Below are positions 12,329 through 35,919 of a DNA stretch of 62,572 bases, piece after piece. The position numbers and the translations under genes are program-made. The notes beneath the pieces were generated by a model that ran no database searches, was not told the DNA's origin, and saw only the letters and a list, made by a program, of their open reading frames with translations. Origin of the DNA: an uncultured Myxococcales bacterium (lineage in GTDB: Bacteria; Myxococcota_A; Polyangia; Fen-1088); assembly GCA_964431675.1 (NCBI GenBank), contig CAYSKR010000110.1:1-62572 (forward strand), in the 5' to 3' direction. Numbering within the stretch: position 1 is the first letter of the stretch; every line of letters begins with the position of its first letter.

Positions 12329-12367
12329 GCCGCGCGGCGGCGGCGAGGAAGTGACCCGGGACCGACT

Positions 12368-12949: not shown

Positions 12950-13065
12950 GAGCGGCGCGTGTTTTACATCAAAACCGACGGCGGAGCGTCGCCAGCCATT
13001 GCGCCCTTGCAGGGCGCGCGCCTTGTCGGGGCACGACAGTCCATGGTACGTGCAACGGAGGATTC

Positions 13066-19944: not shown

Positions 19945-20898
19945 TCAAGCAGTGGCGGGCAGGCCGAATCGGCGCGCGAAGTCTTCGATGGTTCGCCCGA
20001 CGCCATCTTCCAGCGACACCGAAGGCGTCCAGTTCAAGATCGCTTTTGCCCGAGTTCCGTCGGGGTTGCGCCGAACCGGGTCGTCCTTGGGCAAGGGTGC
20101 ATGAATGATCGGCGACTGCGATCGGCACAAGCGCTGCACCAGCTCGGCCAGCTCCAGCATCGTCGACTCGCGCGGATTTCCCAGGTTGATCGGTTCGAAG
20201 CCGTGGTCACTTGCCATCAGGCGCACGAATCCTTCAATCAGATCGCTCACGTAGCAGAACGACCGCGTCTGTTTACCGTTGCCAAACACCGTCATCGGTT
20301 GGCCCCGCAGCGCCGCCACCACGAAACTCGACACCACTCGGCCGTCGTTCTCGTGCATCCGCGGACCGAAGGTGTTGAAGATCCGAGCGATGCGCACCTC
20401 GACGCCAAACTGGGTCGCGTAAGCCACCGCCAGCGCCTCCGCGCAACGTTTGCCCTCGTCGTAGCAGGAGCGAGGCCCAATGGGGTTGACGTTGCCCCAG
20501 TAGGTTTCTCGCTGTGGATGCTCGAGCGGATCGCCGTAGACCTCCGACGTGGACGCCAGCAGCACGCGCGCCTTCGCCTCGCGCGCAATTTCCAGCACGT
20601 TGAGCGTCCCCTCGACGGCAGTCCGGATGGTGCGGACGGGGTTGCGCTGGTAGTGGATCGGCGAGGCCGGGCAAGCCAGGTGGTAGATTTCGTCAACCTC
20701 CATCGTCAGCCGATCCTGGACGTCGTGCCGCACCAGCTCGAAATGCGGATGACCAAGCAGATGCTCGATGTTGGCGCGCGAGCCGGTGAAGAAATTGTCG
20801 AGCGCGACGACCTCATGCCCGTCGGCAACGAGGCGGTCGCACAGGTGAGATCCGAGAAACCCCGCGCCGCCCGTGACCAGCACGCGCTGGCGCCTCAA
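19945..20898 (-). CDS. UDP-glucuronate decarboxylase (UDP-xylose synthase-like) SDR
   Basis: [38 protein letters not shown], and YDEGKR (YxxxK). Confidence 0.85.
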
Positions 20899-21911
20899 GC
20901 GCGTGCTCCCAGCGTGACCGGAGCGCCGTCGTTTACCAGCGATCTGGCCCCGGCTTCAAGCACGCGCACCACGCGAAGCGCCGAAGCACCGCTGGCGCGG
21001 GGTGTTTTCCCGGTCGCAATCGCCGCAATGAAATCTTTGCACTCGAGATCGAGCGGCTCGACCATCGGCACTCGCGGGATGTAGATGTCCCCATTCCGAA
21101 TCGACAGAAACTGGGCAAAATCAGTGAATCCGGACGGTGGTTCAAAGCCCTTGTCGTATACCCGCAGCTTCTCCACCGGGTGGACGTCGTCGAATTCAAC
21201 CATCTTCTGCGACCCCACGATGGTGAGCCGACGCTCCTTGCGCGGGTCCAGCCAGGACAAATGAATCTGCGCCATGACGCCGCTGTGAAAGCGCAGGTTG
21301 ACGAACACCACGTCTTCCACGCCTTTTTGCAGGTAGGCACCGCCCCGCGCACTGACCGACTCGGGCTCGTCATCGAGCAGGTGCAGGATCATCGACACGT
21401 CATGGGGGGCGAGGCTCCACATCGCGTTCTCGTCGGGACGCACCTTCCCCAGGTTCACCCGCAGCGCGTACAGGTACAGGACACGCCCGAGCTCACCGCT
21501 CTTGACCATGGTCGCCAAACGTTCCATCGCCGGGTGGTACAGCATCAGGTGGCCCACCATCAGGGTGCGCTTTGCCTCGGTCGCTGCGGCCACCACCGAC
21601 TCCGCGTCCGCCGCCGTCAGCGCCAGCGGCTTTTCCACCAGCACGTGTTTTCCGGCCTTGAGCGCCTTGCACGCTTGTTCGGCGTGCGCGATCGCCGGCG
21701 TTGCCAGCACGACGGCATCGACGTCAGCGCGCGCCAACGCCTCGTCCAGGGTCTTTCCCAACAGCGCACGCGGTGCGAGTCCAGCAGCCCGTTGCAAGGC
21801 TTCGTCGGATGGGTCACAGACCATCGTCAGGGTTGCGCCCTCGATCCGGCCAAACGCGCGCACGTGGTTGATGCCCCACGCTCCTGCTCCGATGACGGCA
21901 ACCCGAACCAT
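20895..21911 (-). CDS. Gfo/Idh/MocA-family sugar-nucleotide oxidoreductase (WbpB-like)
   Basis: [20 protein letters not shown]..., EKPLALT. 4-nt overlap with the downstream decarboxylase gene. Confidence 0.85.
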
Positions 21912-21917
21912 GTTCTG

Positions 21918-23006
21918 CTAGCCTGGCCCGCGATAAAATGCGGCGATCTGCTCCACCACGTGCGCCTGCTGCTCGGCGCGCAACTCGGGATAAATCGGCA
22001 AGGCCAGTGCCTCACGCGCAGCCGCCTCGCTGTGCGGGAACGCCCCTTCCTTGTAACCCAGCTCAGCGAAACAGGGCTGCTGGTGGAACGACAGCGGGTA
22101 ATAGACTTCGGTCGAAACACCCTGCTTGCCCAGATGAGCCCGCAGGGCGTCGCGCCGGGGCGCGCGCACCACGAACTGGTTGTAGATGTGTTCGGGCACG
22201 TCCCCCGGCAAGCGAAACTCCGCCGGGATGCCCGGCGCGCTTGCGAACAGCTCCCGGTAACGGCCCGCGTTTGCCCGTCGGCCCGCCGTCCAGGCCGGCA
22301 AGCGCGGCAGCTTGACCCGCAAGATCGCCGCCTGGATGGAATCGAGACGGAAGTTTCCTCCCACCGCGTGGTGGATGTATTTCGGTCGCGAGCCATGGGT
22401 CCGCAACAGGACGACCCGGTCGGCGAAGGCATCGTCGTTCGTACACAAAGCGCCGCCGTCGCCAAAGCAGCCCAGGTTCTTCGACGGAAAAAAAGACAGG
22501 CAGCTCGCGACGCCAGAAACCTTGCCCGCACCAATCGACTGCGCCGAGTCCTCGATGATCGGAACGGTGACCTTCGGCAACGTCGCCGGCCGACCGTACA
22601 GATGCACCGGAATGACCGCCTTGGTCCTGGTGCCACATGCGGCTGCCGCAGCGCCCGGATCGAGGTTGAACGAATTTGCCTCGATGTCGGCAAACACGGG
22701 CCGCGCCCCGAGGCGGGCAATGCATCCCGCCGTCGCATAAAACGAGAACGGCGTCGTCACGACTTCATCGCCCTGGCCCACCCCGAGCGCCATCAACGCG
22801 ACCAGCAACGCGTCCGTCCCCGACGACAACCCGATGGCGTGGCGGACGCTCAAGAAGGCCGCCAGCTCCTTTTCGAACGCGGCGACGTCGGGCCCCAGGA
22901 TGAAACTCCCGGCGTCGACGACGCGCCCGATCGCCGCATCGATTTCGCCGCGCAGCGGCCCGTTGCAGGCGCCGAGGTCCAGCAACGGCACCCGCGCCGT
23001 ATTCAT
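21918..23006 (-). CDS. DegT/DnrJ/EryC1/StrS-family sugar aminotransferase (WbpE-like)
   Basis: ATG (plus cat 23004-23006) gives MNTARVPLLDLGACNGPLRGEIDAAI...GDEVVTTPFSFYAT...FFPSKNLG. The upstream 78 codons of ORF 21918..23240 overlap the acetyltransferase gene. Confidence 0.9.
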   Translation of the reverse strand: MNTARVPLLDLGACNGPLRGEIDAAIGRVVDAGSFILGPDVAAFEKELAAFLSVRHAIGLSSGTDALLVALMALGVGQGDEVVTTPFSFYATAGCIARLGARPVFADIEANSFNLDPGAAAAACGTRTKAVIPVHLYGRPATLPKVTVPIIEDSAQSIGAGKVSGVASCLSFFPSKNLGCFGDGGALCTNDDAFADRVVLLRTHGSRPKYIHHAVGGNFRLDSIQAAILRVKLPRLPAWTAGRRANAGRYRELFASAPGIPAEFRLPGDVPEHIYNQFVVRAPRRDALRAHLGKQGVSTEVYYPLSFHQQPCFAELGYKEGAFPHSEAAAREALALPIYPELRAEQQAHVVEQIAAFYRGPG

Positions 23007-23590
23007 GCCCGGCCCCCATCGCGCAGCCGCAAGACCTCGCGGGCCCCATCCTTCCCCAGATCGTAACGGCACCCGCAATCCGCACAAACAAGTGTTCCGT
23101 CGCGCAGCCGCTCGCCGCACCGGCACATCCATCCGACGACCCGGCCAGGCACGCCCATCACCAGGCCGAACGCCGGTACGTCGCGCGTCACGACGGCACC
23201 CGCGCCAATGAACGCGTACTCGCCGATGCTCGTCCCGCACACCACCGTCGCGTTCGCTCCTATGGCGGCACCGCGGCCCACCCGCGTCGTCTTGTATTCA
23301 TCCTTGCGGATGATGAACGCGCGCGGATTGATCACGTTGGTGAACACTGCGGACGGCCCCACGAACACCTCATCGGCAAGCTCGACCGCATCGTAGAGCG
23401 ACACGTTGTTCTGAATCTTGCAGCCGTTGCCGACGATCGCCTTGGTGCCGACGAAGACATTCTGACCGAGCGAGCACCCGGTCCCGATCCGCGCCCCCGC
23501 CATCACGTGACAAAAGTGCCAGACCTTGGTTCCCGCACCGATCTCGCAGGGCTGGTCCACCACCGCCGTGGCATGCGCCCAGTGACTCAT
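23003..23590 (-). CDS. hexapeptide-repeat N-acetyltransferase, WbpD/WlbB-like, with C-terminal Cys-rich ribbon
   Basis: Hexapeptide repeats. C-terminus CRCG...CADCGC. 4-nt overlap with the aminotransferase gene. Confidence 0.85.
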   Translation of the reverse strand: MSHWAHATAVVDQPCEIGAGTKVWHFCHVMAGARIGTGCSLGQNVFVGTKAIVGNGCKIQNNVSLYDAVELADEVFVGPSAVFTNVINPRAFIIRKDEYKTTRVGRGAAIGANATVVCGTSIGEYAFIGAGAVVTRDVPAFGLVMGVPGRVVGWMCRCGERLRDGTLVCADCGCRYDLGKDGAREVLRLRDGGRA

Positions 23591-23609
23591 GACGTTGTGC
23601 CCCGTCGTC

Positions 23610-24218
23610 TCAAAAAATCCGCTCTTCGATCATCAGCATGTCGCCGGGAAGCACCACGACGTTGGCTTGCTTACCTTGGCTAATCTCCGCGACCCGGTAA
23701 GTCTGCGTCACCACCTTGCCCTGGACCTCGCGGCGCAGGATGACCGTGTTCTTGTCCGCAATCGGCGAAAAACCACCGGCGGCGGCGACGGCATCCACGA
23801 TGGTCATGTTGGGAAAGTACGGAATGGGGCCCGGCTTGTTGACCTGGCCCAAGACCGATACCTTGCGGCTGTTCCACTCGCGGACGATGATGGAAACCTG
23901 GGGTTTGCGCAGGTAGTCGCCTTGCAGCTTCTTGGTGATGAGTTCTTGCACCTCACCGCTCGACAGCCCAACGACGGAGAGACGCCCGGCGAACGGGTAA
24001 TCGACGGTGCCATCCGCCGCCACGCGGTACGATCCCGAAAACTCGCTTTCACCGAACACCCGCACGTCGAACACGTCTTCAACGCCGAGGCGCTCGTCGG
24101 TGGCTACCGCCAGCGGTGAAATCGGGCGCCCCGCGTCGCCGCGTTGATGACCGCATGAGGCGACCCAGATCGATGCCACGCCAACCAACAACATCGATCG
24201 CGTAAGCAATCTGATCAT
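23610..24218 (-). CDS. short outer-membrane polysaccharide export (OPX/Wza-like) lipoprotein
   Basis: ATG (cat 24216-24218) gives MIRLLTRSMLLVGVASIWVASCGH (lipobox). Poly_export-like YRVAADGTVDYPFAGRLSVVGLSSGEVQELI plus one SLBB-like segment. The protein ends ...LPGDMLMIEERIF with no C-terminal helix. Confidence 0.8.
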   Translation of the reverse strand: MIRLLTRSMLLVGVASIWVASCGHQRGDAGRPISPLAVATDERLGVEDVFDVRVFGESEFSGSYRVAADGTVDYPFAGRLSVVGLSSGEVQELITKKLQGDYLRKPQVSIIVREWNSRKVSVLGQVNKPGPIPYFPNMTIVDAVAAAGGFSPIADKNTVILRREVQGKVVTQTYRVAEISQGKQANVVVLPGDMLMIEERIF

Positions 24219-24228
24219 GCTGCACCGC

Positions 24229-25569
24229 CTAGTACGTGACACCCATGCGTGCAAAAATCTGATGCTTCGAATAGTCGGCACCGACGTCCAGCGGCAAGCT
24301 GCTGCCGTTCAACAGGAAAACATAGCCCGCGCCGGTATAGAACCACTGCTGGATGAAGTAGTCGGCGGACAAGCCGGCCTGCAAAAAATTGTCGTTGCGG
24401 GTGACGACCACGCCCTGATCTTTGTAGCCCTTGAACCGGCGGCTCTCGTAGCGAACGGTCCCCGAAAAAGAAACTCGCTGCGCGATCGATTGGCGCACGC
24501 TGAAGTAAGGTGTGTCCACGTCGTAAAAGTCGCCAAGAACCGAGTTGCGATACTCGTGACGATAGCCAATCCGCAACTCCGTCATCGGGGTGGGCTGGTA
24601 CCCAAGTTCCGCCAGGCCAGCCACGTTGCCGAAGCCTGAAGGATTGGCCGCGCCGCCTTGATAGAACGCGGCGGCATAGCCGGCCGCCAGGTTGACGCTG
24701 AGCTTGTTGGTCACAAGACCACGCAAACCAAGCAGCGCCTTGGAGGGATAGGATCCCTGCTTCGGCGTGAAGCTTGGGCTCATCTTGACGGCTGCCGGCG
24801 CATCCTTGAGGTAGCTGATCATGCCCTGCGATGCTTCCAGAAAGACGGCGGTGTTCGGGTACCACTTCCAGCTCAGGTCAGCTAGCAGCTCGTGCGCGAG
24901 GGAACTTGCGTACGTCAGGCTCGGATCCTCGAAATAATCGAGCAGATTCGAATAGCGCAGCGTGCCGTCGATGCGGCCGCCGCCCGGTGCCACCCGCAAC
25001 TCTGCGCCGACCAGGTTGGTATCCCGCACAATATTTCCATTGCCGCGCTCGTAGGGAGGATCCTGAACCCGCGTGAACGTGTCCATCAACTGAAACGACA
25101 ACTGCTGCCCGGACGAAAACTTGAGCGCCGCAGCGAGGTTCGGGTTGAACGCCCGCTGGGCCTTCACCGCCGCATCGTCGGACAGGTATTCGCGATACTG
25201 CAACAACGCGCGCAGGTTGTAGAAAATGGGCGGAATCCCGCCACTGCGGGTGCCGTTGGTCAGTTCGGCAAACGGGGTCACCCGCAACATCGGCGCCGCG
25301 GTGGGAGCGAGCTTCGAATAGAACACGTTCGAGTCGTAGCCTCCCTCGGCCCCAACACCCACGTGCAATAGACTCGTTTCGCTGAGGGAGACACCAGCCC
25401 GGCCCGGCCCAACCTGGACCGCATCGCGAGCGCGCAATGCCGCATCGCTGCCGATGTTGCTGAAGCCTGGACTGGACGCCAGACCTCCCCCGTTATCCGC
25501 CCGCGCGTTCGCCGCTGCAAGGAGTACCGCCGCCAGCGCGACGTAAGAAGCAGTAAAGCGGAAAGTCAT
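24229..25569 (-). CDS. outer-membrane beta-barrel protein (GltH/NfsH-like or Wzp-type porin partner of the OPX)
   Basis: ATG (cat 25567-25569) gives signal peptide MTFRFTASYVALAAVLLAAANARA. Alternating-hydrophobic beta pattern throughout. C-terminal ...FARMGVTY ends in an aromatic residue. Confidence 0.65.
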   Translation of the reverse strand: MTFRFTASYVALAAVLLAAANARADNGGGLASSPGFSNIGSDAALRARDAVQVGPGRAGVSLSETSLLHVGVGAEGGYDSNVFYSKLAPTAAPMLRVTPFAELTNGTRSGGIPPIFYNLRALLQYREYLSDDAAVKAQRAFNPNLAAALKFSSGQQLSFQLMDTFTRVQDPPYERGNGNIVRDTNLVGAELRVAPGGGRIDGTLRYSNLLDYFEDPSLTYASSLAHELLADLSWKWYPNTAVFLEASQGMISYLKDAPAAVKMSPSFTPKQGSYPSKALLGLRGLVTNKLSVNLAAGYAAAFYQGGAANPSGFGNVAGLAELGYQPTPMTELRIGYRHEYRNSVLGDFYDVDTPYFSVRQSIAQRVSFSGTVRYESRRFKGYKDQGVVVTRNDNFLQAGLSADYFIQQWFYTGAGYVFLLNGSSLPLDVGADYSKHQIFARMGVTY

Positions 25570-25657
25570 GTTGGGCAGGATGTCCTTGAATGCAGCGCGA
25601 CGGTGCGGGTGGGCTGGAAGCAGACTGACTGGCAAACTCTCTGTCCTCTACGGCTTG

Positions 25658-26302
25658 CTACTTGAAGGTACTCGCGAGCACCGGACGCGCGGTGCTGTCC
25701 GTTGTGGCGCCGGTTGTGGTGCTGCCCGTTTCGGATTTGGTCAAGTCCTGTTTCGTCATGTTCGAATCGCGCTCCATCGTACGCGTGGCCGCGCCGAGGT
25801 AGCTGGCCTCCGCGCCCGCGCACTTCTCGGCTTCCGCGTCGATAACCTGGGCCTTTTGGTTCAAAATCGTGACCCGCGTGTACTCGTGCAGGCAGTCCCC
25901 ATCGGCTTTCTTGGCCAACTCATCGTCATTGCGAGCCGCCGCAGCGGCTTTCCGGGCGGCCCCATCTTGCAGGGCAAGCAAGCCCTGATCGGTCATGTTC
26001 AGATTCGCCTTGGCCTCGGCTTGGTTGCCCTGGAGGCAGTTGATGCGAATGACGTCTTTCTCTTTTCGCGCCGACTCGAGCAGGGTGTCGACGTGGCGCA
26101 GCGTCGCTTCGATCTTCTGGCGGTAAATCTGGCACTGACTGATCATTTCGGCGGGACTGATCGTCGAACGCTGGGGCAACGACAAGCTAACGTCAGGCGG
26201 CGGTGCCTGCGTCGTGGTGCCTGGCGTCTGCGCCAGCGCGGTACCAATAGCGGTCGCCAGGGCGAAAATCGCCCCCAAGCTCGTTGTTGTCGCCTTGGAC
26301 AT
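25658..26302 (-). CDS. secreted coiled-coil protein with four Cys
   Basis: GGAGG RBS 8 nt upstream. Signal peptide MSKATTTSLGAIFALATAIGTALA. Heptad-like Ala/Lys/Glu-rich body. Confidence 0.6.
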   Translation of the reverse strand: MSKATTTSLGAIFALATAIGTALAQTPGTTTQAPPPDVSLSLPQRSTISPAEMISQCQIYRQKIEATLRHVDTLLESARKEKDVIRINCLQGNQAEAKANLNMTDQGLLALQDGAARKAAAAARNDDELAKKADGDCLHEYTRVTILNQKAQVIDAEAEKCAGAEASYLGAATRTMERDSNMTKQDLTKSETGSTTTGATTDSTARPVLASTFK

Positions 26303-26453
26303 AACTATCCTCCTCGCGCGTCGGTTGGTGGTGCATCGGTCGGCAGGAAAAGCTGCGACAGCACGCCGCTGAGCCTACAATCGGCGGCAATATAAGTGTA
26401 TGCAGCACGCTGTGTCAACAAGGCCACACGGGCATTTATGTCTTTGTGCGTTG

Positions 26454-27866
26454 TCACTGTGACGCCGTGAAAACAAAGGGGAAAGAGACCTCGACCGCGC
26501 CCCCGGAAGGAGCCGGGAAACGCCACCTGGCGACCAGGCCCTTGATGCAGCCTGAGACCTCTGAATCGCCCAGCGTGTCCTCTTCGATATCGACCCCAGA
26601 CACCGTTCCGGCCGGGGTAATGGTCCAATGGACCTTGATCTTGCCAGATAGGCTAGGGTTCCGCTTCAAGGCGCGCTCGTAGCAGGCCTTGATGGCACCC
26701 ATGCGCGCCCGGACTTCCTTGGACACGATGTTGGGGTCAAGCTCGCCGTCGACGGCCGGTGCCTCGTGCTTGACGATGCCCGATACGCGCCGCTCGGAGC
26801 CCTGGCCGGTGCCGCCTTCAGCGATGCCCGATCCGCCGCGCAGGCCACCGACGCTGGCGATCTTGCCGCTCCCTCCGGTGCCGGTCTTGACCCCGCGCAG
26901 CGTGTCGCCGCCGGTGGCCACGGTCAAGCCTCCTACCCCCTGGAACGCTTTCTCCTGATCGCGATCGACGTCGCCCTTGCCGAGCACGTCGGCGATCGAC
27001 CCGTCCTCACCCTTGGCACCCAGCAACTTGAGGATGCCGGTGTTCTTCACCGCCTCCACGAGACGGGCACGGCGCTCTGCCGCCGCCTTCTCCTTCTCTT
27101 CCTCGCGTTTCTTCTTGTCTTCCTCGGTCAGTTCTTTCTGTTCTTTCTTCGGCGCCGCCGCGACCGGCTTCTTCTTGTCTTCGCCTTTGGTGTCGTCCTT
27201 CTTCTCTTCCTTGGGCTTGGGCGGCTCGATCGCCTTCTTTTGCACGACCATCTTGATGAAGCGATCAGGGATTTCTTCGATGTCTGGTTTGCGTGGCCAA
27301 TCCACGCTGCGCAGGTAGATGACCATCACCAGGTGCATGGCGAACGACGTGGACGCGATCGCGGTGAAGAACCAGTCCATCTGGCCAGCGAAACTTCCGC
27401 GCACCGACGCCGGCAACTGCGGCCGCGGCTGCGGTGGCGGCGGCGTGACGAACTGAAACAAGATGGTGGTGTCGCCAACAACGATCTTGCCACGCGAGCG
27501 CTCGTCGAGCGCCAAGAGCCAGGCCGATCCCTGCTTCTTGATCTTGCCGGTCTGTTTGAGCTGGCCGAGGGTGATGACCTCGTTGCCCACGGCGATGCGC
27601 GCATCCATCGCGTCCGCGAAGTGCCCGACGTAGCCCTTCGGCGTCTCCTGGAAGAGCAGCCACTCGCGCGGCAGGTATTCAGTTGGGACGACGAACATGT
27701 TGCGTGCCGATTGCCCTACGGTGATGTTTTCGCGCTTGCGCACCAGGCGTTCCTCTACGATGCGCCCCCCTTGAATGACGCCAATGCGTAAAATCTTCTG
27801 CCGGGGAACAGCGCGAGCCGCTGTGCCTGCATGAGAGCTCTTGTTGCTTGCCTGTGGAGTCGCCAT
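26454..27866 (-). CDS. bitopic TonB-like protein, GltG/PglI (NfsG)-like: cytoplasmic FHA-like domain, one TM, Lys/Glu/Pro linker, AgmX/PglI-type C-terminal domain
   Basis: N-terminus ILRIGVIQGGRIVEERLVRKRENITVGQSARNMFVV. TM FFTAIASTSFAMHLVMVIYL. Linker KPKEEKKDDTKGEDKKKP. C-terminus ...IKACYERAL...GCIKGLVARWRFPAPSGGAVEVSFPFVF. Confidence 0.7.
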   Translation of the reverse strand: MATPQASNKSSHAGTAARAVPRQKILRIGVIQGGRIVEERLVRKRENITVGQSARNMFVVPTEYLPREWLLFQETPKGYVGHFADAMDARIAVGNEVITLGQLKQTGKIKKQGSAWLLALDERSRGKIVVGDTTILFQFVTPPPPQPRPQLPASVRGSFAGQMDWFFTAIASTSFAMHLVMVIYLRSVDWPRKPDIEEIPDRFIKMVVQKKAIEPPKPKEEKKDDTKGEDKKKPVAAAPKKEQKELTEEDKKKREEEKEKAAAERRARLVEAVKNTGILKLLGAKGEDGSIADVLGKGDVDRDQEKAFQGVGGLTVATGGDTLRGVKTGTGGSGKIASVGGLRGGSGIAEGGTGQGSERRVSGIVKHEAPAVDGELDPNIVSKEVRARMGAIKACYERALKRNPSLSGKIKVHWTITPAGTVSGVDIEEDTLGDSEVSGCIKGLVARWRFPAPSGGAVEVSFPFVFTASQ

Positions 27867-27888
27867 GGAAGGGGGGTCCTCTGCTGAG

Positions 27889-28290: not shown

Positions 28291-29291
28291 TACTTCAGCG
28301 GCAAAGGTGCGTCGGCCGCGGGTGTTGCCTTGGATGGTGAAAGGGCCGCGGGCGCGGCAGCGGATCCTGCCGCAGCCGCTGCGTCTTTGGCCGCCTTTTG
28401 TGCTGCGCGCGCCTTGTCGCGTTCGAGTTGCTTTTGCACGCGCTCGATGCGCTTCTGTTCCTTCTTGATCCCCTCGCCTGCCTCGGTGATGTACTGGTCG
28501 ACGGGATCCTTGTCGAGCGACTGCCCGGACGACTGCATCATCTGCTTGTAGCGCTGGAAGTAGGCAATCGCGGCGTTCATTTTGGCCGTCAGATCCATGT
28601 TCGGCATCTTGTCGGCGTCAAGGTACAAGATGCCCTGGTTGAACACGGCGTCGGCGTAGTTGGGGTAAAGCTGCAAGGCGTGCTGGTACGAGGCCAGCGC
28701 CTTGTCGTAGTCCTTGAGACCGCGGTAAGCGTCGCCGAGATTCAAATGGGCCTTGGCGAATCCCGGATGCAGCGACACCGATCTTTCCAGCAACGGGGTC
28801 GCCTCGCGGTAGTTCTTCGCTTCAAGGTACTGCGCCGCCAGGTTGTTCCACATGATCGCGTTCTCGGGCCGCGCTAGGGTGGCCTTCTTGAGCATCTCGA
28901 TCGCGCCCGGGCCGTTGCCTTTCTCGCGCTCCATGAACGCGAGCAACTGATACATATCGCCTCGCTCGGCGTCAGCGGCCTTGTTCGCCTGCATCATGTC
29001 CCACAAGGTTTTGACCCACTCGTACTTGTGCAGCTTGTAGTAGCCCTTGGCCATCAGGAGCATGGCGGGCGTGAAAGTTTCGTTCTTGGCCAGCGCCACC
29101 TTGGCCGCCGCGACCGTGCCCTCGTAGTTCCCGGCCTCATACTGTCGGCCAGCGGCGGCCGTCTCGTCGATGGGAATGACCTTGGGCGGCGGCTGGCGCT
29201 TCTTGCGCGCGGCATCCTGGGCATGCGCCGCCCCAACCCCGGAAAACCCGAGGGCAAAACCGATGAACAGCCACATTTTCATTGACTTCAC
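28290..29291 (-). CDS. secreted TPR-repeat protein, GltE/AglT (NfsE)-like
   Basis: Signal peptide MKSMKMWLFIGFALGFSGVGAAHA. Several TPR units (NNLAAQYLEAKNYREA, LNLGDAYRGLKDYDKALASYQHALQLYPNY). 4-nt overlap with the upstream gene. Confidence 0.72.
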   Translation of the reverse strand: MKSMKMWLFIGFALGFSGVGAAHAQDAARKKRQPPPKVIPIDETAAAGRQYEAGNYEGTVAAAKVALAKNETFTPAMLLMAKGYYKLHKYEWVKTLWDMMQANKAADAERGDMYQLLAFMEREKGNGPGAIEMLKKATLARPENAIMWNNLAAQYLEAKNYREATPLLERSVSLHPGFAKAHLNLGDAYRGLKDYDKALASYQHALQLYPNYADAVFNQGILYLDADKMPNMDLTAKMNAAIAYFQRYKQMMQSSGQSLDKDPVDQYITEAGEGIKKEQKRIERVQKQLERDKARAAQKAAKDAAAAAGSAAAPAALSPSKATPAADAPLPLK

Positions 29292-32200
29292 GGGTACTCC
29301 ACCCCGATGCGCTCGTCCTTTATATAGGGAAACTCGTCGGGCAAATACTTCGAAAGATTCTCACGCGCCTTCTTGACGTAGTCGTTGGTGACGCCAAGCT
29401 GGGCCGCTCTTTCAAGGGTGGCCTTCCATTCGGTCTTGGCCGTGTCTTCGATCGGCGTCACAAACTGATAGATGGCGTCCTTGTACTGCGTCAAAGCTTC
29501 GCCGCACAGACTTGGATCGGCGCGGCACGCCTTCTTATCGATCGACTTGACCTCGTCAGGGGGCGCGTCGGCTGCCTTGACCAGCTTCTGCGCGAACTCG
29601 TAGAAGATGTCGCCGCGGCGCAAAAACGAAGCCAGGGTCCAGGTGGCATCCTTGTAATCCCACACCCGCTTGTACTCTTCCTGCAGCGCTCTGGCCTCGG
29701 CGATGAAAGCATCAATGACCGCCTTGGCTTTCTTCGTCTCGGTTAGCCGCAGTTGCTTGGCCTTGAACACGTTGAACTTGTCGTCGAGCAGCAGGTACTC
29801 AGCCTTGGCCGCCGCAGCGGCCGCCGGCGTCGCGGGCGGCAGATGCCGCGCTAAAAACTCGTTGCGCACCTTCTGATAGGCGGCCAAAACGTCCTTGCGA
29901 TTGCGGCTCTGCTGCTCGGTGAGCGTCGCCTTCTTGAGGTAAGCGTCGATGACGTAGTCGCCGGCGTCCTGCGCTCCGGAATAGCGCCGGATGAGCTCAT
30001 CGAGACACTGGCGATACTTGCCGTAATCCTTGGCCTTCTCGTAGTCGTTGCAGGCGTTCATGTAGGCCTGCGCGGCATCCTTGGGCTTGTCGGCAACCGC
30101 GTCGGCGTACTGCTTGAAGAGCTGCGCGGCGCGCGGGTACTGCTGATCGTTGTCGACCAGGATCGCCGCCTTGCCGAGGGCCTCCTTGCGATGCTCGTTG
30201 CCGGTAAACTTTGGGTCGGTGGCGACCTTGGTGTAGTAGGCGACCGCCTTGTCGAACTCGAACGCGCGGCTGTAGTTGTTGGCCGCGTTCCAGGTGGCTT
30301 CCTTGCCCAGCGCCGTATCACCGTAGTCGCGCGCCAGACGCTCGTAGCACTTGGTGGCTTCCGCCGGCTGGAAGAGCTTTTCGTAGATGACGCACGCGTT
30401 GTTCAGGTTGTTGGGCGCGTCCTCTTCCTTCGGGCTCTCGTTGACCAGATCCATCAGGTCCAGCGCGAGGCTGGCATCAAGGCCCGAGGCGATTGCCTTG
30501 CTACCTGGGGCCGGAGCCACGCCCGGCTTGGTGGTCGCCACACCGCGCACGATGTCGATGCCGCCGGTGCCTTCCTTGCAACGGGCCACCTGCTTCGAGG
30601 TGCCTTTCTCTTCGTTCTCGATCTCGTTCTGCGCCGTCTGCGTGATCACGGTCGAGCGCACCGAGCTCTTGATCTGCTTGATGCGCGCGATGAACTCACC
30701 GCCGTTCTGCGACTTGGCACACGGCGATTCGCTGAACTGCTCGGCAATCGCCAGGAGTCGTCCGAGGGCACAGTCCTTTTGTTCAGCGTCGGGAACCAGG
30801 TAGTCGATGAAGTAGGTCTGCAGCAGCGACTGGTAAGCCGTGAGGCCCACGTCGGACTGCGTACCGCAATAGGTATCAGCCACCGACTGCAAGCGCTTCC
30901 GGCCCTCGGGCCAGTCCTTGTAGCGCAGCACCATGACGGCGGCCGCATACTTCATGCCGGGGACCTTCTCGTCCTTCAGGTTGGCGACGTACCAGTCGAG
31001 CGCGCCCAGGTACTTGGTGTAGATCTCGGGCAGCGCAATCGGCGTCACCGGTGGCTTGGTGTTCTTCTCGTCGGGGATCGGCGGATCCTCGAGCTGCTTC
31101 GCCACCTTCATCCGATCGATGATCGCCTCGTACGACTTGATGATCTGAAACGCCGCCGTGACCTGGTTCTTGTTGTCGAGGACCGAGTCACGGACCAGCG
31201 TGTAGGCCGCGATGGCCGCATCGAACTGGTCGGAGAAATACAGCGCGTCGGCGTAGAAGGCGGAAAAGTCATAAGCCTGCTTCGAGTTCGGATAGGCGAC
31301 CAGATACTTTTCGTAAAGCTCGCCAGCGTTCTTGTACAGGACTTTGCACTGCAAAAGCTTGCTCGTGTCCGACTGGTTCTTCTGCCACTGATCCTTGCAC
31401 CCCTGCGCCGCCGCATGCACGTTGGTGGCCGCGATCAGCAAGGCGTCCTCGGCCAGCTGCTGCGCCACCGCCAGGGCTTCGGGGTTGTCCTTGTTCTTGT
31501 CGAACCAGGCCGTGCCCTTGGTGTAGTTGCGCCCCAGCAGCTCGCGCTCTTTCGCTGCGGCTTCAAGATTGCGGTCGCGCTCGAACGCCTTGACGATCTT
31601 CTCCTGCACCTGGGGGGCTTCGATGTAGTATGGCCACTTCGCCAAAAGAGCGCGGTAAACGGCGATCGCCTCGGGGAACTTCGTCTGATCGAAGTAGATG
31701 TCGCCGAGGCGCTGGTAGACCTCGCGCACGTGCGGCTCGACCTCGCGGCCGGCGTAGAACTTTTCCATGCGAGCAAGGCCGGTCTCGGGGTCGGGCAGGG
31801 TGTCGCCGTCCCAGTCCGACTCGTTGAAGCTGATGCCCAGGTACTGCACCGCTTCGGGACGCAAATCAGAGCCGAATTTTTCGCCCGAACTCTTGCGCCC
31901 GTCGGCCCATTTCACCAGGCCATCGAATTCCTTGATGGCCTCGGAAAAGCGGTTGTCGCGGTAATACGACCACGCCAGCTTGTACAGCGCCTTGTCGTAA
32001 TAGGTCGAATCGGGAAACTCCAGCACCTTCCCGTAGGCACCGATGGCCAGGCCCAGCTCGGCGTTGTCGAAGTGCATCTCGCCCACCCGGGTCCATGCCT
32101 CGGCGAGAAACTTCGAATCCTTTTTTACAGGCACGCAATCCTTGTAAACCTCCGCCGAGGCGGAGCGCGACGCCAGCGCGCCACCCCGGGAAACCTGCGG

Positions 32201-32851
32201 CGGCGGCGGCGGATCGAGCGGCTTGTATCGATTCGAGCAAGTCATGGCGAGCAGCACCTGCTTGGCCTCGGCATCCTGGCCCATTTCGCCCAGGCAAAAG
32301 CCCAGCAAGTAGTACGCGGCGTCGAGCAATCGGTAATTCGGAAACTCGGTGAGCAGGCGGCGGTACAGGTCCACCGTGTTGGCGTAGTTGGGCCTGGGCG
32401 ATGGCGTCGTGGGCGGGGTCGGCGAATCGAGCGCCTTCTGGTACTCCTCCTGGATGGTGAGGAACTCGTCGGACGACTTCTCGTAATAAAGTTCCGCCAG
32501 CCGGAACATCGCGTCCGGGGTCCAGCGCCGATCATTGGGGTACCTGCGCAGGAACTGCTCGAACATCGCGATGGCGTCGAGCCGCCGCTCCCGCTCTTCC
32601 TTCTCATTCAAAGAAATCAGTGGCTCGTACTTGGACTTGATGCCCTTCATCTTGTCGATGTAGGCGCGACGAATGACCACGTTGGCGGCAGCCCGGTAGC
32701 CCTTCACCGCTTCGCTGAAGCGCGCCACGTCGTTGGCCATTTCCTCGAGCTGCTGCGGATCGAGCGTGGCGGGCGCGGAAGCGGCGTGAGCGAGGCTGGT
32801 CGCGATCATCCCGAGCGCACCGAACACAGCGGCGGGCGCGATGCGCGTCAC
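29288..32851 (-). CDS. large (1187 aa) secreted TPR-repeat protein, GltD/AgmU (NfsD)-like
   Basis: Signal peptide MTRIAPAAVFGALGMIATSLAHA. TPR-like helical repeats throughout. Size and position match AgmU-type proteins. 4-nt overlaps at both ends. Confidence 0.7.
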   Translation of the reverse strand: MTRIAPAAVFGALGMIATSLAHAASAPATLDPQQLEEMANDVARFSEAVKGYRAAANVVIRRAYIDKMKGIKSKYEPLISLNEKEERERRLDAIAMFEQFLRRYPNDRRWTPDAMFRLAELYYEKSSDEFLTIQEEYQKALDSPTPPTTPSPRPNYANTVDLYRRLLTEFPNYRLLDAAYYLLGFCLGEMGQDAEAKQVLLAMTCSNRYKPLDPPPPPQVSRGGALASRSASAEVYKDCVPVKKDSKFLAEAWTRVGEMHFDNAELGLAIGAYGKVLEFPDSTYYDKALYKLAWSYYRDNRFSEAIKEFDGLVKWADGRKSSGEKFGSDLRPEAVQYLGISFNESDWDGDTLPDPETGLARMEKFYAGREVEPHVREVYQRLGDIYFDQTKFPEAIAVYRALLAKWPYYIEAPQVQEKIVKAFERDRNLEAAAKERELLGRNYTKGTAWFDKNKDNPEALAVAQQLAEDALLIAATNVHAAAQGCKDQWQKNQSDTSKLLQCKVLYKNAGELYEKYLVAYPNSKQAYDFSAFYADALYFSDQFDAAIAAYTLVRDSVLDNKNQVTAAFQIIKSYEAIIDRMKVAKQLEDPPIPDEKNTKPPVTPIALPEIYTKYLGALDWYVANLKDEKVPGMKYAAAVMVLRYKDWPEGRKRLQSVADTYCGTQSDVGLTAYQSLLQTYFIDYLVPDAEQKDCALGRLLAIAEQFSESPCAKSQNGGEFIARIKQIKSSVRSTVITQTAQNEIENEEKGTSKQVARCKEGTGGIDIVRGVATTKPGVAPAPGSKAIASGLDASLALDLMDLVNESPKEEDAPNNLNNACVIYEKLFQPAEATKCYERLARDYGDTALGKEATWNAANNYSRAFEFDKAVAYYTKVATDPKFTGNEHRKEALGKAAILVDNDQQYPRAAQLFKQYADAVADKPKDAAQAYMNACNDYEKAKDYGKYRQCLDELIRRYSGAQDAGDYVIDAYLKKATLTEQQSRNRKDVLAAYQKVRNEFLARHLPPATPAAAAAAKAEYLLLDDKFNVFKAKQLRLTETKKAKAVIDAFIAEARALQEEYKRVWDYKDATWTLASFLRRGDIFYEFAQKLVKAADAPPDEVKSIDKKACRADPSLCGEALTQYKDAIYQFVTPIEDTAKTEWKATLERAAQLGVTNDYVKKARENLSKYLPDEFPYIKDERIGVEYP

Positions 32852-35199
32852 TTCTGGTCCTCCTCAAGCAAGGACTTGAAGTCGTCCTCGATCGACTTGA
32901 GCTCCAACTTTTGCATGTTGATGAGCTTCGACACCGCGCTGGTTTTTTGATCTTTGAGGCCCCACGACACGTCGATGAGGCCGACGTCGGACTGCACCAC
33001 CAGCTCGTAGAATCGGTCGCTGACCTTGGTGAGCATGGCGGACGCGAGCCCACCGCCGAGGCTCTGCGACTCGGACATGAGGCCACCGAGGCGCGCGGTG
33101 GCTTGCTGCAACTGCGCCTGCTCGATCACCATGCGCTCCTTGACCGAAACCAGGCGCTGATCGGCCGCGGCATCGATCCGGCCGTCAAATTCCGCCAGTT
33201 GCGTCTGCACGACATCGGCTCGTCGCAAGACCGAGGCCACCGCATCGAACTCACCCCGCGCACCCGACGGCAGACGCGGCTGCACTTTGGCGAGCTCTTC
33301 CAGCTCGGCCTTCATGAGGTCGGACAGCCGAAGCGTTGCCCTGCGCTCACCCGGGTCGGAACCAGACGTGGCTGCTTCCTGGGCGGTCACCTCGATCTCG
33401 CGCCGGACCTTCTCCAGCGCGGTCTGGGCGACCGCAATCTCGGTCCGCAGGTCGGCCACTGGCCCCTGCAAATCCTCCGGGCGAATCTTCTGCTCGGCCC
33501 GCGAGGTAACGTAGTACTGCTCGATGGCGATGAGTTCGGCTTCGAGCGAGCGGATAAGGACGTTGAGCTCCGACGCCTGGGCGTCGAATCCCGTCACCGC
33601 ACCGCGCACGTTCCGGTCTCTTTCCTTGAGTGCTGCGGCGGACATCGGCAAAGCCTGCGTCTGCTGTTCGAGCAGTGCCCGCTCGCTTGCGATGCGATCG
33701 ATGGCCAGCTTTTCCTCGGCGGACAGGTGCGAAGCCACGAGGCCCCGCAACCGGCCAGCAAAGCGGCCACGGATGTCCATGGTCTGGTTCAAGATTTCGA
33801 CCGAATCCGTGCGCGCATTCGACAGATCCGAAAAAAGGCCCGACCGGCCCACGCCCGTGACCGCGCGATCAAGACGATCCATGAGCTGCTCGGAAGCCCG
33901 CATGTCGCGCTTTATCTCGCTCACCTCCTCGACCAGCGCGAGCATGCGCTCCATCTCGACGTCGGGCTTGATCCACTTGGCCGCCGCCGGGGGCACAAAC
34001 GCCGCGATGTTGAACTTGTCGAGGTTCTTGCCGATCAGGTTCTCGAAGTATTTGGCGTCCGACTGCGACCGCACCTTCTGCTCGCCAACCTGCTTGAGCA
34101 GGGGCTCGAACTGGTCGCGCATCTCGCTGAAGTTGCCGTTGGCGACAAAGAAGTTGCCGAGGCGCAGGTTCAAGTTGCCCATGAGCAACCGAAGTTCCGG
34201 TGCCTGGGAACCGTTGGCGTCCTGGAGCAGCAGCAAGTCCAGGGCGCGGTATGCGCTCTTGAAGTCCTTTGCCTTGATCGCGTTCCACGCCGACTCGTAC
34301 ATGGACTCGGTGAAGTACTTGGAATCCCTGGGCACGGCCGCGTACGCATCCCGCGCCTTGTCGAACTGGCCGCGGTCGAAATACACCCGGCCAATGGCCA
34401 TGTGGGCCAGATCCTGAATTTCCTTTTCGTCGTCGCTGCGCGCCTGGATGCGCAGCACCATGTCGAACGCGGTGGCGGCGTCGGCCATTTCGCCCTGCTT
34501 GACCGAGATGGTGGCGATGAAATAGCGCGCCTGCATGTAATAGGGACTCGTCGGCGCGATGCCGCCGAACGAGGCCAGGGCCACGTCGAGCTTGCCGCGA
34601 AAATAACTGTATTTGCCGCGCACGTAGGGGACCGACGCCTCCAGTTTCTGCTGCGGCACCTTGTCGAGACGGCCGAGGTAGCCATCGACGTTGCCGTAGT
34701 CGTCGGTGCGCAGCGCGATCTCGACCAGGCGCTGCAGCGCCCGCTGCTCGGCCCGGGAACCGGTCTCCTTGGTAATCGCCTGCTCGAAGTAGCGCCGCGC
34801 CGAGTTCAGATCCTTGCCGAGAAAGCGCGCTTCGCCGAGGAGCAGAACCGCATCGTCAAACGCGCGCGAATTGGGATACTTCTCGATGACGTCGAGCAGC
34901 ATGATCGCTGCCTCGTCGTAGTTTTTTAGCTCGAACAACGTTTGCGCCGCGATCACGCGACGGTCGGCCACCAGCGGATCGGACTGCGCGGCCTGGTTGT
35001 CGCGGAACTCGGCGGCTATCTGCCGGACCCTGCCATCGAGTTCAAACAACTTCTTGTTGGCATCGTCGAAGTCGTCGGCCAGGGCCGCCGCAGATCCGAA
35101 CAGAACCACGCCCATGGCCAACGCAGCCGGGCGACCGCTCCGCGGTCTCGCCAGCCACGCGCCGCGCCGGTCGCGGATCGGATGCTCATCCTCGTGCAT
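32848..35199 (-). CDS. TPR plus long coiled-coil envelope protein in the GltC/NfsC position
   Basis: Hydrophobic N-terminal segment. TPR-like N-terminal half (AQTLFELKNYDEAAIMLLDVIEKYPNS...). The C-terminal roughly 350 aa is heptad-rich and Glu/Arg/Leu/Ala/Gln-rich. Confidence 0.65.
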   Translation of the reverse strand: MHEDEHPIRDRRGAWLARPRSGRPAALAMGVVLFGSAAALADDFDDANKKLFELDGRVRQIAAEFRDNQAAQSDPLVADRRVIAAQTLFELKNYDEAAIMLLDVIEKYPNSRAFDDAVLLLGEARFLGKDLNSARRYFEQAITKETGSRAEQRALQRLVEIALRTDDYGNVDGYLGRLDKVPQQKLEASVPYVRGKYSYFRGKLDVALASFGGIAPTSPYYMQARYFIATISVKQGEMADAATAFDMVLRIQARSDDEKEIQDLAHMAIGRVYFDRGQFDKARDAYAAVPRDSKYFTESMYESAWNAIKAKDFKSAYRALDLLLLQDANGSQAPELRLLMGNLNLRLGNFFVANGNFSEMRDQFEPLLKQVGEQKVRSQSDAKYFENLIGKNLDKFNIAAFVPPAAAKWIKPDVEMERMLALVEEVSEIKRDMRASEQLMDRLDRAVTGVGRSGLFSDLSNARTDSVEILNQTMDIRGRFAGRLRGLVASHLSAEEKLAIDRIASERALLEQQTQALPMSAAALKERDRNVRGAVTGFDAQASELNVLIRSLEAELIAIEQYYVTSRAEQKIRPEDLQGPVADLRTEIAVAQTALEKVRREIEVTAQEAATSGSDPGERRATLRLSDLMKAELEELAKVQPRLPSGARGEFDAVASVLRRADVVQTQLAEFDGRIDAAADQRLVSVKERMVIEQAQLQQATARLGGLMSESQSLGGGLASAMLTKVSDRFYELVVQSDVGLIDVSWGLKDQKTSAVSKLINMQKLELKSIEDDFKSLLEEDQK

Positions 35200-35205
35200 G
35201 CCCCG

Positions 35206-35919
35206 TCACTTCTTCGCCGCGGTGCCGCTGCCCTCCGGGTTCATCACGTTCACGCGAAACTGGATGTCCGGCTTCTCTTCCATGTTCGTGGTGATGCCGC
35301 CCTTTTCAAACCCGACGACCGTGACGACCGTCGCCTTGCCTTCGGCCGCGACGAAGGTGTTGCTGGCGCGCACGTTGAACTTGTAGCCCTTCAGGTAACT
35401 GAAAACCCCGAATCCGTTGCCCTGGTACTGCAAGCTCACGGAAAGCGAGTGCGATCCCTGCTGAATCGCGCCGTTGTAGATGTCGAACTCGCCCATGTCG
35501 GCGAGGTGCCCGCTGTCATCAGCCCGGCTGAAGATCTGAACCCCGTCGAGCGCGTAGACGGCCTTGATGAGCTTGAAGGTTCCGCTCATCTCGTTCTTGT
35601 GACGGATGATGCCCCGGGACGCGCCGATGTGGACGCCAAGGACCGTTTCCTTGAGCAGGTTGAGGCGCGCCTTGGTGCGAAAAACCTGCTCCTTGAGTTC
35701 GTTGACGTTGCGCTCAAGGGCCTTGAGCCGGACGTTGTAGCCGCCGCTATCGGCGGAACCTGCCGACGAAGCCGCCGGCGCGGCGAGCGGCGCGGCGGGC
35801 GGCACGGCGCTTGCGCCTTGAGCGAGCACCACCGCGGAAGGCATGGCGAACAACACCGCCGTGCCCAGAACAACGCTGCAAACACCCGTGAGAATTCGCC
35901 AAGTTGGAACGCGCGTCAT
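35206..35919 (-). CDS. secreted protein with short coiled coil and beta-rich domain (first gene of the string)
   Basis: GGGAG RBS. Signal peptide ...VVLGTAVLFAMPSAVVLAQG. Coiled segment NVRLKALERNVNELKEQVFRTKARLNLLKE, then a beta-strand pattern. Confidence 0.6.
   Translation of the reverse strand: MTRVPTWRILTGVCSVVLGTAVLFAMPSAVVLAQGASAVPPAAPLAAPAASSAGSADSGGYNVRLKALERNVNELKEQVFRTKARLNLLKETVLGVHIGASRGIIRHKNEMSGTFKLIKAVYALDGVQIFSRADDSGHLADMGEFDIYNGAIQQGSHSLSVSLQYQGNGFGVFSYLKGYKFNVRASNTFVAAEGKATVVTVVGFEKGGITTNMEEKPDIQFRVNVMNPEGSGTAAKK

Follow-up and report, generated by a model that had tools for sequence, protein, structure and literature searches.

Gene content of the locus

Within a 62.6-kb window of DNA from an uncultured Myxococcales bacterium (contig CAYSKR010000110.1, 62,572 nucleotides; "the window" below means this whole stretch), we analysed a string of 13 minus-strand genes running from 35919 to 19945. 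The string opens with genes related to the Glt gliding proteins of Myxococcus xanthus (unit 1, the Glt-like unit, 35919–26454) and continues with genes for a putative polysaccharide exporter of the OPX type and for nucleotide-sugar enzymes (unit 2, the export unit and its tail). The two units are also neighbours in M. xanthus, and they may act on the same polymer.

Open reading frames (ORFs) were called in six frames and filtered by GC content at third codon positions (GC3), and gene junctions were checked on the called coordinates. The ORF listing reproduced all 13 genes given in an earlier note on this DNA, and the junction check returned its 4-nt overlaps (32848–32851, 29288–29291, 23003–23006 and 20895–20898), its 1-nt overlap at 28290 and its two larger gaps (151 nt at 26303–26453 and 88 nt at 25570–25657); the short gaps between string genes measure 6, 22, 10, 19 and 6 nt. 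GC3 of the string ORFs lies between 0.75 and 0.84, as expected for real genes on a contig of 64% GC; the GltF-like gene (27889–28290) falls below the size cut-off of the GC3 listing. Profile scans against Pfam and NCBIfam, together with PDB sequence searches of the window proteins, confirmed the domain calls that the earlier note had made gene by gene (TPR, TonB-C-like, OPX, acetyltransferase, aminotransferase, oxidoreductase and decarboxylase). The features of the string are as follows.

35206–35919, minus strand: g01, 237-aa secreted protein with a signal peptide and an Ala/Pro linker; first gene of the Glt-like unit
32848–35199, minus strand: GltC-like protein, 783 aa, N-terminal TPR and long C-terminal coiled coil; MXAN_1923 counterpart
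29288–32851, minus strand: GltD-like TPR protein, 1187 aa, signal peptide and TPR matches; MXAN_1922 counterpart
28290–29291, minus strand: GltE-like TPR protein, 333 aa, match to the GltE model; MXAN_1921 counterpart
27889–28290, minus strand: GltF-like small secreted protein, 133 aa, weak CglF match; MXAN_1920 counterpart
26454–27866, minus strand: GltG-like inner-membrane protein, 470 aa, AgmX/PglI domain; MXAN_1919 counterpart
26389–26418, minus strand: predicted sigma-70-type promoter, TTGACA, 18-nt spacer, TATATT, 11 of 12 consensus positions
25658–26302, minus strand: g07, 214-aa periplasmic protein, predicted helical hairpin, first gene of the export unit; MXAN_1917 counterpart
24229–25569, minus strand: WzpB-like, predicted outer-membrane beta-barrel, 446 aa, signal peptide, C-terminal ...GVTY beta-signal
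23610–24218, minus strand: WzaB-like class-3 OPX lipoprotein, 202 aa, Poly_export and SLBB domains, lipobox VASC
23003–23590, minus strand: WlbB/WbpD-type sugar 3-N-acetyltransferase, 195 aa, Hexapep 83 bits
21918–23006, minus strand: nucleotide-sugar 3-aminotransferase of the DegT family, 362 aa, DegT_DnrJ_EryC1 327 bits
20895–21911, minus strand: GFO/IDH/MocA oxidoreductase, 338 aa, Pfam GFO_IDH_MocA 88 bits
19945–20898, minus strand: UDP-glucuronate decarboxylase (UDP-xylose synthase, UXS), 317 aa, UXS1 match; last gene of the string

The clearest family resemblance in unit 1 comes from the GltG-like protein, in which a cytoplasmic N-domain is followed by a single transmembrane helix, a linker rich in Lys and Glu and the TonB-C-like AgmX/PglI domain; it is the presumed motor-coupling subunit. 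It passed the 40-bit cut-off of NF033768 (AgmX/PglI C-terminal domain) with 106.6 bits, scored 174 bits against the GltG model (E 4.5e-51; the cut-off of 650 bits was missed) and reached about 65 bits against GltJ. Matches to the GltC model (E 4e-11, 42 bits, missing a cut-off of 450 bits), the GltE model (E 6.6e-15, 55 bits, missing a cut-off of 225 bits) and the CglF model (E 0.0098) were weaker than the GltG match but fell in the expected gene order. TPR Pfam matches cover residues 69–340 of the GltC-like protein, and the GltD-like protein also matches TPR models of the YbgF/CpoB type. The earlier note had described this upstream half as Glt/Nfs-type; by the GltG and AgmX/PglI scores its proteins are indeed relatives of that family, but they are not Glt or Nfs orthologues, as every equivalog cut-off was missed. 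Neither the string nor the rest of the window yielded GltA/B/H/I/J/K-type genes in NCBIfam and Pfam scans, and the sole predicted barrel is the WzpB-like one.

The first protein of the unit, g01, has no Pfam or NCBIfam match. It is the best-conserved protein of the locus, 59–82% identical across 42 related loci, and always lies between obg and the GltC-like gene. An AlphaFold2 model built on a 30-sequence alignment gave a helix (residues 60–92) and a beta-rich domain, with a mean pLDDT of only 54.

Unit 2 is headed by g07, the barrel gene and the OPX gene. No Pfam or NCBIfam family matches g07, whose family, including its Myxococcus member, shares two invariant cysteines and the motifs KD-I-x-LNC, HE-x-TR-x-TI and a C-terminal RPxxAS; conserved columns include C89, C161, H139, P207 and S211, and an Ala-rich stretch of 14 residues is inserted in the window copy. 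Single-sequence AlphaFold2 placed helices at residues 50–109 and 115–192 (pLDDT about 70–77 there), which predicts for g07 a long helical hairpin with antiparallel arms. The barrel protein matches the EpsL outer-membrane protein model weakly (E 5e-5), and its homologue in a Myxococcaceae metagenome-assembled genome (MAG; locus L068) has a weak BBP2_2 porin match. Its gene adjoins the OPX gene across a 10-nt gap. The OPX protein contains Poly_export (73 bits, residues 38–112) and SLBB (42 bits, residues 119–196) domains and ends after SLBB, with no Wza_C outer-membrane helix. From these features the barrel and OPX proteins appear to form a class-3 composite polysaccharide translocon.

Pfam scans covering every sizeable ORF upheld the earlier note's statement that no Wzx, Wzy, Wzc, initiating transferase or TolQR/ExbBD-type motor gene is present in the 62.6-kb window. 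MotA_ExbB and ExbD/TolR domains were absent from the scanned window ORFs and also from within ±10 kb in two relatives. The motor genes may be encoded elsewhere in the genome; M. xanthus has a motor paralog of unknown role, MXAN_3003–3005, at another site (PMC3169522).

The counterpart locus in Myxococcus xanthus

The best solved-structure match of the window OPX protein was 9n9a_A, a 186-aa polysaccharide export protein (E 3.7e-35, aligned to the last residue). The Myxococcus WzaB sequence was rebuilt from the 9n9a alignment and used to retrieve two Myxococcus loci (L063 and L064) and a Stigmatella locus; over the 163 aligned residues, 9n9a_A and Myxococcus WzaB (P0121) agree completely (100% identity). 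In L064, genes on one strand encode, in order, TPR proteins of 809 and 1111 aa, proteins of 495, 91 and 447 aa, a 148-aa cNMP-binding protein, and proteins of 203, 421 and 204 aa, the last being WzaB. After wzaB the strand changes and nothing glycan-related follows.

By tblastn, eight window proteins have matches in L064 at 26–43% identity, with order and strand preserved. The GltC-like protein is 26% identical to the 809-aa protein (E 1e-18, colinear), the GltD-like protein 31% identical to the 1111-aa protein (residues 46–1179, E 3e-112), the GltE-like protein 34% identical to the 495-aa protein (E 1e-25), the GltF-like protein 43% identical to the 91-aa protein over its C-terminal 47 aa (E 3e-10) and the GltG-like protein 35% identical to MXAN_1919 over its full length (E 5e-75). 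Downstream, g07 is 30% identical to the 203-aa protein (E 3e-11), the barrel protein 26% identical to WzpB at the MXAN_1916 position (E 2e-13, colinear; both proteins end in ...VTY), and the OPX protein 39% identical to WzaB (E 4e-37). Protein sizes run in parallel, at 783/1187/333/133/470/214/446/202 aa in the window and 809/1111/495/91/447/203/421/204 aa in Myxococcus.

The Myxococcus genes have been described in parts. Luciano 2011 reported that M. xanthus has extra Glt-like clusters, among them G4, of unknown function, whose gltD homologue is MXAN_1922; the table of that paper gives G4 as MXAN_1919–1923, with sizes of 447, 91, 490, 1111 and 809 aa (PMC3169522). MXAN_1915 is WzaB and MXAN_1916 is WzpB, the OPX and barrel proteins of the biosurfactant polysaccharide (BPS) pathway, with WzpB modelled as an 18-stranded PgaA-like barrel (PMC9603273). 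The gene mxan_1915 has been termed 'orphan-like', its BPS partners wzc, wzy and wzx lying about 1 Mb from wzaB (Islam 2020, PMC7310880). The five colinear Glt-like matches fall on G4 positions (E 1e-18 to 3e-112 for the four larger proteins), and the sizes fit the Luciano table. Against the Glt models, the M. xanthus G4 proteins also score below threshold in nearly the same pattern as their window counterparts: MXAN_1919 scores 161, 107 and 64.5 bits against the GltG, AgmX/PglI and GltJ models, compared with 174, 107 and 65.5 bits for the window GltG-like protein, and MXAN_1920 matches CglF with E 5e-8.

The stretch 35199–23610 is colinear with the nine genes MXAN_1923–1915, and from sequence and gene order we consider it very probable that the two regions are orthologous. 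On this evidence unit 1 would belong to the G4 kind of core-type Glt paralogs, comprising three TPR scaffolds, a GltF-like protein, the TolA/TonB-like GltG protein and g01. The wzaB-side flank, the only flank visible in the Myxococcus locus, differs from that of the window, so on that side only the block itself is common to both. Stigmatella aurantiaca (CP002271) has exactly the order of the window, with no cNMP gene, and the Myxococcaceae MAG has the Myxococcus-type gene order.

The earlier note had taken Nfs and Exo as its points of reference and thought the configuration undescribed; the locus instead matches G4 and BPS, and the same gene order exists in M. xanthus at MXAN_1923–1915. The adjacency of the two modules, which the note had proposed to look for in related genomes, is conserved in Myxococcus, in Stigmatella and in uncultured relatives. 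The component parts were each described separately, G4 in 2011, WzaB in 2020 and WzpB in 2022, and in the open-access literature we found no text joining G4 with wzpB/wzaB. Apart from Luciano 2011, the searched literature contained no mention of MXAN_1917–1923, and none at all of MXAN_1917 itself; the supplementary lists of two papers do not give the neighbours of Haliangium Hoch_6494–6498.

At the MXAN_1918 position, a cNMP-binding protein of 148–155 aa is encoded in L063 and L064 (7503–7949) and in L068 (7592–8059), and is missing from Stigmatella and from the window. It is possibly a lineage-specific regulator at the junction between the units.

A conserved promoter between the units

The predicted promoter at 26389–26418 lies within the 151-nt gap between the GltG-like gene and g07. 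Of 56 related loci, 55 carry the pattern TTGAC-N17-20-TAnnnT in the same intergenic region. The Myxococcus locus has it shortly before the MXAN_1917 homologue, the sole match there in 10.7 kb, and overall the pattern turns up just once or twice per 12–21-kb locus. When the relatives are aligned, both hexamers are invariant whereas the spacer and flanks diverge, which is the phylogenetic footprint expected of a real promoter. As a control, the obg–g01 intergenic region contained the pattern in 0 of 39 loci, and no relative has a sigma-70-consensus or sigma-54-type pattern upstream of g01.

A conserved promoter at this position implies that the string consists of at least two transcription units. 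Judged from the sequence, g07, the barrel, OPX and sugar genes would be driven from this promoter as a unit of their own, with read-through from upstream possible. The earlier note had treated the genes as a single string with two halves meeting at the beta-barrel. Co-directionality stands, but the genes do not form one simple operon, and the promoter moves the boundary to a point before the 214-aa g07. A riboswitch downstream of the promoter was considered and dropped, as Rfam gave no match anywhere in the window and the 5' leader sequence is not conserved.

Conservation and variation in uncultured relatives

A scan of the genome collection with aligned GltG-like proteins yielded 62 loci at species level. 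Every one comes from an uncultured Myxococcales/Polyangia MAG, and their GltG-like proteins are 60–78% identical to that of the window. Every locus that is long enough keeps rplU, obg, g01 and the GltC-, GltD-, GltE-, GltF- and GltG-like genes. Where at least 3 kb of sequence follows the GltG-like gene (41 loci), g07 comes next in 40 and the barrel gene then follows in 36.

Beyond the barrel the tail varies. About 20 loci have an OPX gene there, about 15 have acetyltransferase, aminotransferase and oxidoreductase genes with no adjacent OPX gene, and three mix the two kinds of tail; four loci have no barrel and carry an inverted acetyltransferase/oxidoreductase pair, and in one nothing recognisable follows. 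The window tail combines the OPX and sugar-enzyme tails and adds the UDP-xylose synthase, an exact arrangement found in none of the related loci; the synthase gene is linked in just one of the 62 (L060, 73% identity, opposite strand). The OPX-type loci continue on the same strand with genes for a Wzy_C–TPR protein of 820–880 aa, a 474-aa membrane protein and a GT4 glycosyltransferase, and some add a Glycos_transf_4 polyprenyl-phosphate sugar transferase; the window has none of these glycan-assembly genes after its OPX gene. The varying glycan genes that follow the Glt-like unit mark this spot as a variable glycan-assembly and export locus.

The junction between the units is itself altered in some relatives. 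Two loci (L005 and L061) carry an insertion of about 3–4 kb, with a gene resembling SDR/epimerase proteins (28–31% identical to the UDP-xylose synthase), between the GltG-like gene and g07, and in a third (L027) the same SDR-like gene directly follows the GltG-like gene in a sequence that ends before g07. From these three loci, the junction is evidently a site of gene gain.

Nucleotide-sugar enzymes of the tail

The acetyltransferase aligned over its full length with Bordetella WlbB (PDB 3mqg; 220 bits, E 1.9e-64), and the aminotransferase matched DesV (2oga, 284 bits) and WbpE (3nu7, 248 bits). For the oxidoreductase, the best NCBIfam match was an archaeal UDP-GlcNAc 3-dehydrogenase (161 bits, below the 450-bit cut-off), and no solved structure is close, the nearest being 3c1a (E 1e-30); a likeness to WbpB/WlbA was not found at E 1e-20 in the solved-structure search. 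From this match and its gene neighbours, the enzyme is probably a UDP-GlcNAc(A) 3-dehydrogenase. The decarboxylase aligned with human UXS1 over residues 3–310 (4gll and 2b69; 416 bits, E 7e-124). We infer that the exported polymer draws on the four tail enzymes for UDP-xylose and for a UDP-2,3-diacetamido sugar. No WbpA 6-dehydrogenase or WbpI 2-epimerase gene was found in the window.

The tail resembles the WbpB/WbpE/WbpD (WlbA/C/B) pathway in the strong matches of its acetyltransferase and aminotransferase to WlbB and WbpE, and in the oxidoreductase gene that likewise follows. It differs in the oxidoreductase itself, which is nearer to the archaeal UDP-GlcNAc 3-dehydrogenase than to WbpB/WlbA.

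A second set of glycan-related genes lies 8 kb from the string, at 10710–15587. On the minus strand, genes for a hexapeptide acetyltransferase (10710–11267) and a GFO/MocA oxidoreductase (11267–12328) overlap by 1 nt and have an MFS fragment beside them (12368–12949); on the plus strand are genes for a GT2 glycosyltransferase (13066–13920) and a 645-aa protein with weak PMT/ArnT-like matches (13650–15587). This set may be a locus for modification of lipid A or of lipid-carrier sugars.

Interpretation of the two units

The best explanation, to which we assign a probability of roughly 55%, is that a Glt paralog unit of the G4 type lies beside a class-3 OPX/barrel export unit with sugar genes, as at MXAN_1923–1915, and that the two plausibly act on the same polymer. 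Unit 2 would carry a polysaccharide, acidic or containing amino sugars, through the outer membrane in the way proposed for pairs of the WzaB/WzpB type, and genes of the Wzx/Wzy type at another site in the genome would serve its assembly; relatives that carry the Wzy_C–TPR, polyprenyl-phosphate transferase and glycosyltransferase genes at this very spot are the basis for this proposal. Unit 1 would act on the exported polymer, its periplasmic TPR proteins serving as a scaffold toward the barrel and its GltG-like protein coupling it to a proton-driven motor of the TolQR/AglRQS type encoded elsewhere. This second step is argued by analogy, with Agl–Nfs acting on the Exo/MASC spore-coat polymer and with PgaA, BcsC and AlgK/AlgE; Agl–Nfs, a Glt paralog, provides the precedent in that it handles the Wza-exported Exo polymer (PMC3858216). 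Rather than being required for secretion, unit 1 more probably modulates or organises it. Functional coupling of the G4-type unit to the export unit, taken as a claim in its own right and resting on these analogies, has in our view somewhat less than an even chance of being correct.

The most substantial alternative is that the units are conserved neighbours and functionally independent, unit 1 serving Tol-Pal/CpoB-like envelope maintenance or some other cargo and unit 2 being an ordinary export cassette. Their adjacency would then be an old arrangement that has been inherited, with unit 1 tied to the rplU–rpmA–obg neighbourhood. Several observations favour independence and weigh against a shared polymer. 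The strong, conserved promoter between the units means that the two can be expressed separately, as far as the sequence indicates. The Glt-like unit always follows obg and has no recognisable consensus promoter of its own, and the best non-Glt matches of both large TPR proteins are TPRs of the YbgF/CpoB type. Five related loci keep the Glt-like unit with no barrel gene beside it, and about 15 have no adjacent OPX gene. In M. xanthus the partners of wzaB lie far away, as described above (PMC7310880), and a mutant with a polar insertion in MXAN_1922 showed no marked change in motility on hard or soft agar (PMC3169522). Mutants of the BPS pathway have swarm phenotypes (PMC7310880), so the normal behaviour of the MXAN_1922 mutant indicates that G4 is probably not required for BPS export, and the export unit's own promoter means that polar G4 insertions need not disturb wzpB/wzaB. 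Also on this side of the balance are the missing motor, Wzx, Wzy, polysaccharide co-polymerase (PCP) and initiating transferase genes in the window and the low to moderate confidence of the g01 and g07 structure models.

Against independence, the order and strand of eight or nine genes are kept between Myxococcia and Polyangia-type MAGs at 26–43% identity, although the downstream flank is different, and order kept at such low identity usually reflects selection for linkage. Relatives gather glycan-assembly genes at exactly this spot, and the sole Glt paralog whose known function lies outside motility handles a polymer exported through Wza (PMC3858216). We regard independence of the units as a serious possibility, well short of even.

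Unit 2 and its tail could alternatively serve O-antigen/lipopolysaccharide (LPS) synthesis or protein O-glycosylation, with the Wzy_C–TPR protein of the relatives as a ligase of the WaaL/PglL type and the diacetamido sugar and xylose as lipid-linked residues. Wzy_C is a domain of the O-antigen ligase family and is fused to TPRs in the relatives, enzymes of the WlbB/WbpE type are classically O-antigen/LPS enzymes, and the window contains, 8 kb off, the second acetyltransferase/oxidoreductase pair with the GT2 and PMT/ArnT-like genes. However, Wzy_C is found in Wzy polymerases too, an OPX lipoprotein with a paired barrel marks export of a free polymer rather than ligation to lipid A or proteins, and the M. 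xanthus orthologue WzaB has been assigned genetically to BPS (PMC7310880), which together make this explanation improbable. Likeness to GltC, D, E, F and G might suggest a genuine Glt machine for gliding or Nfs machine for the spore coat. This is very improbable, and we rejected orthology to either on equivalog scores and gene content: the cut-offs were missed widely (GltG 174 of 650 bits, GltE 55 of 225, GltC 42 of 450), no GltA/B/H/I/J/K, AglRQS or CglB homologue is adjacent or in the window, and the locus is colinear with G4, in which disruption of MXAN_1922 leaves both gliding and twitching intact (PMC3169522).

A bolder reading sees in the locus a third motor-coupled polymer-handling machine beside Glt and Nfs, whose TPR scaffold and TonB-like subunit would act at the barrel to guide, gate or distribute a polysaccharide of the biosurfactant type. 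Glt and Nfs are themselves said to derive from a capsule assembly system, reportedly the argument of a 2015 opinion article by Agrebi et al. Two Glt-like systems of M. xanthus have known roles, in gliding and in the spore coat, and none has been assigned to G4 or G5 since 2011. The linkage of the G4-type unit to MXAN_1917–wzpB–wzaB across two deep myxobacterial lineages offers a genetically testable hypothesis in a tractable model, to which the glycan cassettes at the same spot in relatives and the separate conserved promoter also contribute. The bolder reading of a third machine would further make G4, across the Myxococcota, the partner in the periplasm and inner membrane that is dedicated to exporters of the WzpB/WzaB type, and the MXAN_1917 family an unrecognised third component of the class-3 OPX translocon; as a whole it strikes us as rather doubtful. 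The MXAN_1917 family nevertheless stands out as a conserved, unstudied gene heading a class-3 OPX operon.

Flanking genes and other features of the window

Upstream of the string on the same strand are four genes that we regard as context outside the system.

36011–37045, minus strand: obg, NCBIfam Obg 465 bits
37089–37364, minus strand: rpmA-sized ORF, rpmA
37368–37685, minus strand: rplU, NCBIfam L21 123 bits
37740–39020, minus strand: hisD, NCBIfam hisD 483 bits

The 13 co-directional genes of the earlier note therefore stand, but the run does not begin at 35919, as these four genes precede it on the same strand. The order hisD–rplU–rpmA–obg–g01 is also found upstream in relatives. At its other end (19945), the string converges with a small plus-strand ORF and groES–groEL.

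Elsewhere in the window, a gene for an export gate of type III secretion of the SctV/HrcV type (39603–41615) scored 749 bits, above the cut-off, with no other type III secretion core genes seen nearby; 6 kb from it, at 47582–48571, is the gene of one protein with FHA, YscD-cytoplasmic-like and DUF4388 domains. Three minus-strand ORFs at 49472–54563 (651, 591 and 594 aa) overlap by 150–260 nt as called from the first start codon, and their starts will probably have to be revised; Pfam matches neither of the first two, and the third is a fused FtsJ/RlmL-type methyltransferase. A pyruvate-carboxylase-type biotin enzyme at 54583–58584 (1333 aa from the first start codon) has its first domain match about 190 residues in, and its N-terminal stretch may be an extension or a mis-called start. 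An ORF at 6012–9176 contains GH20 (beta-hexosaminidase) domains and overlaps the end of an amidohydrolase gene (5029–6768), so that its true start is probably further downstream.

Comparison with known systems

The ancestral core complex of Agl–Glt consists of GltC, D, E and G with AglRQS (Luciano 2011, PMC3169522). The window has the four core types and GltF, but no in-window motor and no GltA/B/H/I/J/K, and its proteins miss the equivalog thresholds. Agl–Nfs/Exo offers a parallel in that a Glt paralog, which includes TPR proteins and a GltG homologue of TonB-like kind, is functionally linked to a polymer for which a class-3 OPX/barrel pair is the exporter. Agl–Nfs, however, has the outer-membrane proteins NfsA, NfsB and NfsH, uses AglRQS and is encoded at a locus separate from exo, whereas the window has no A, B or H homologues, its exporter genes are adjacent, and the link is known from the genome alone.

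Synthase-dependent exporters (PgaA, BcsC and AlgK/AlgE) provide a mechanistic analogy, since the window likewise has TPR genes beside a gene for a predicted PgaA-like barrel, and MXAN_1921 has weak BcsC and PgaA TPR matches. The window has no synthase, and its TPR proteins are separate polypeptides; the likeness is a generic TPR similarity rather than membership. Among class-3 OPX/barrel translocons (WzaB/WzpB, EpsY/EpsX and ExoA/ExoB), the window pair fits in that its OPX protein of about 200 aa ends after SLBB and is encoded beside a gene for a predicted barrel of about 420–450 aa. It differs in that cognate Wzx, Wzy and PCP genes, or ABC-transporter assembly genes in their place, are missing from the window and that an additional MXAN_1917-like hairpin gene heads the unit.

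The closest known system is M. xanthus G4 with MXAN_1917–wzpB–wzaB, in which gene order, strand and sizes are as in the window and a promoter-like element likewise precedes the MXAN_1917-type gene. Myxococcus has the additional cNMP-binding gene MXAN_1918 between the units, whereas the window does not; the window adds four nucleotide-sugar genes, and its GltE-like protein is shorter, at 333 aa compared with 490–495 aa (490 in the Luciano table, 495 in the L064 gene call). The window is thus best regarded as the orthologous copy of an arrangement already known, joined to a sugar cassette specific to its lineage, rather than as a new kind of machine, and its value lies in comparative evidence for a testable hypothesis that links G4 with BPS.

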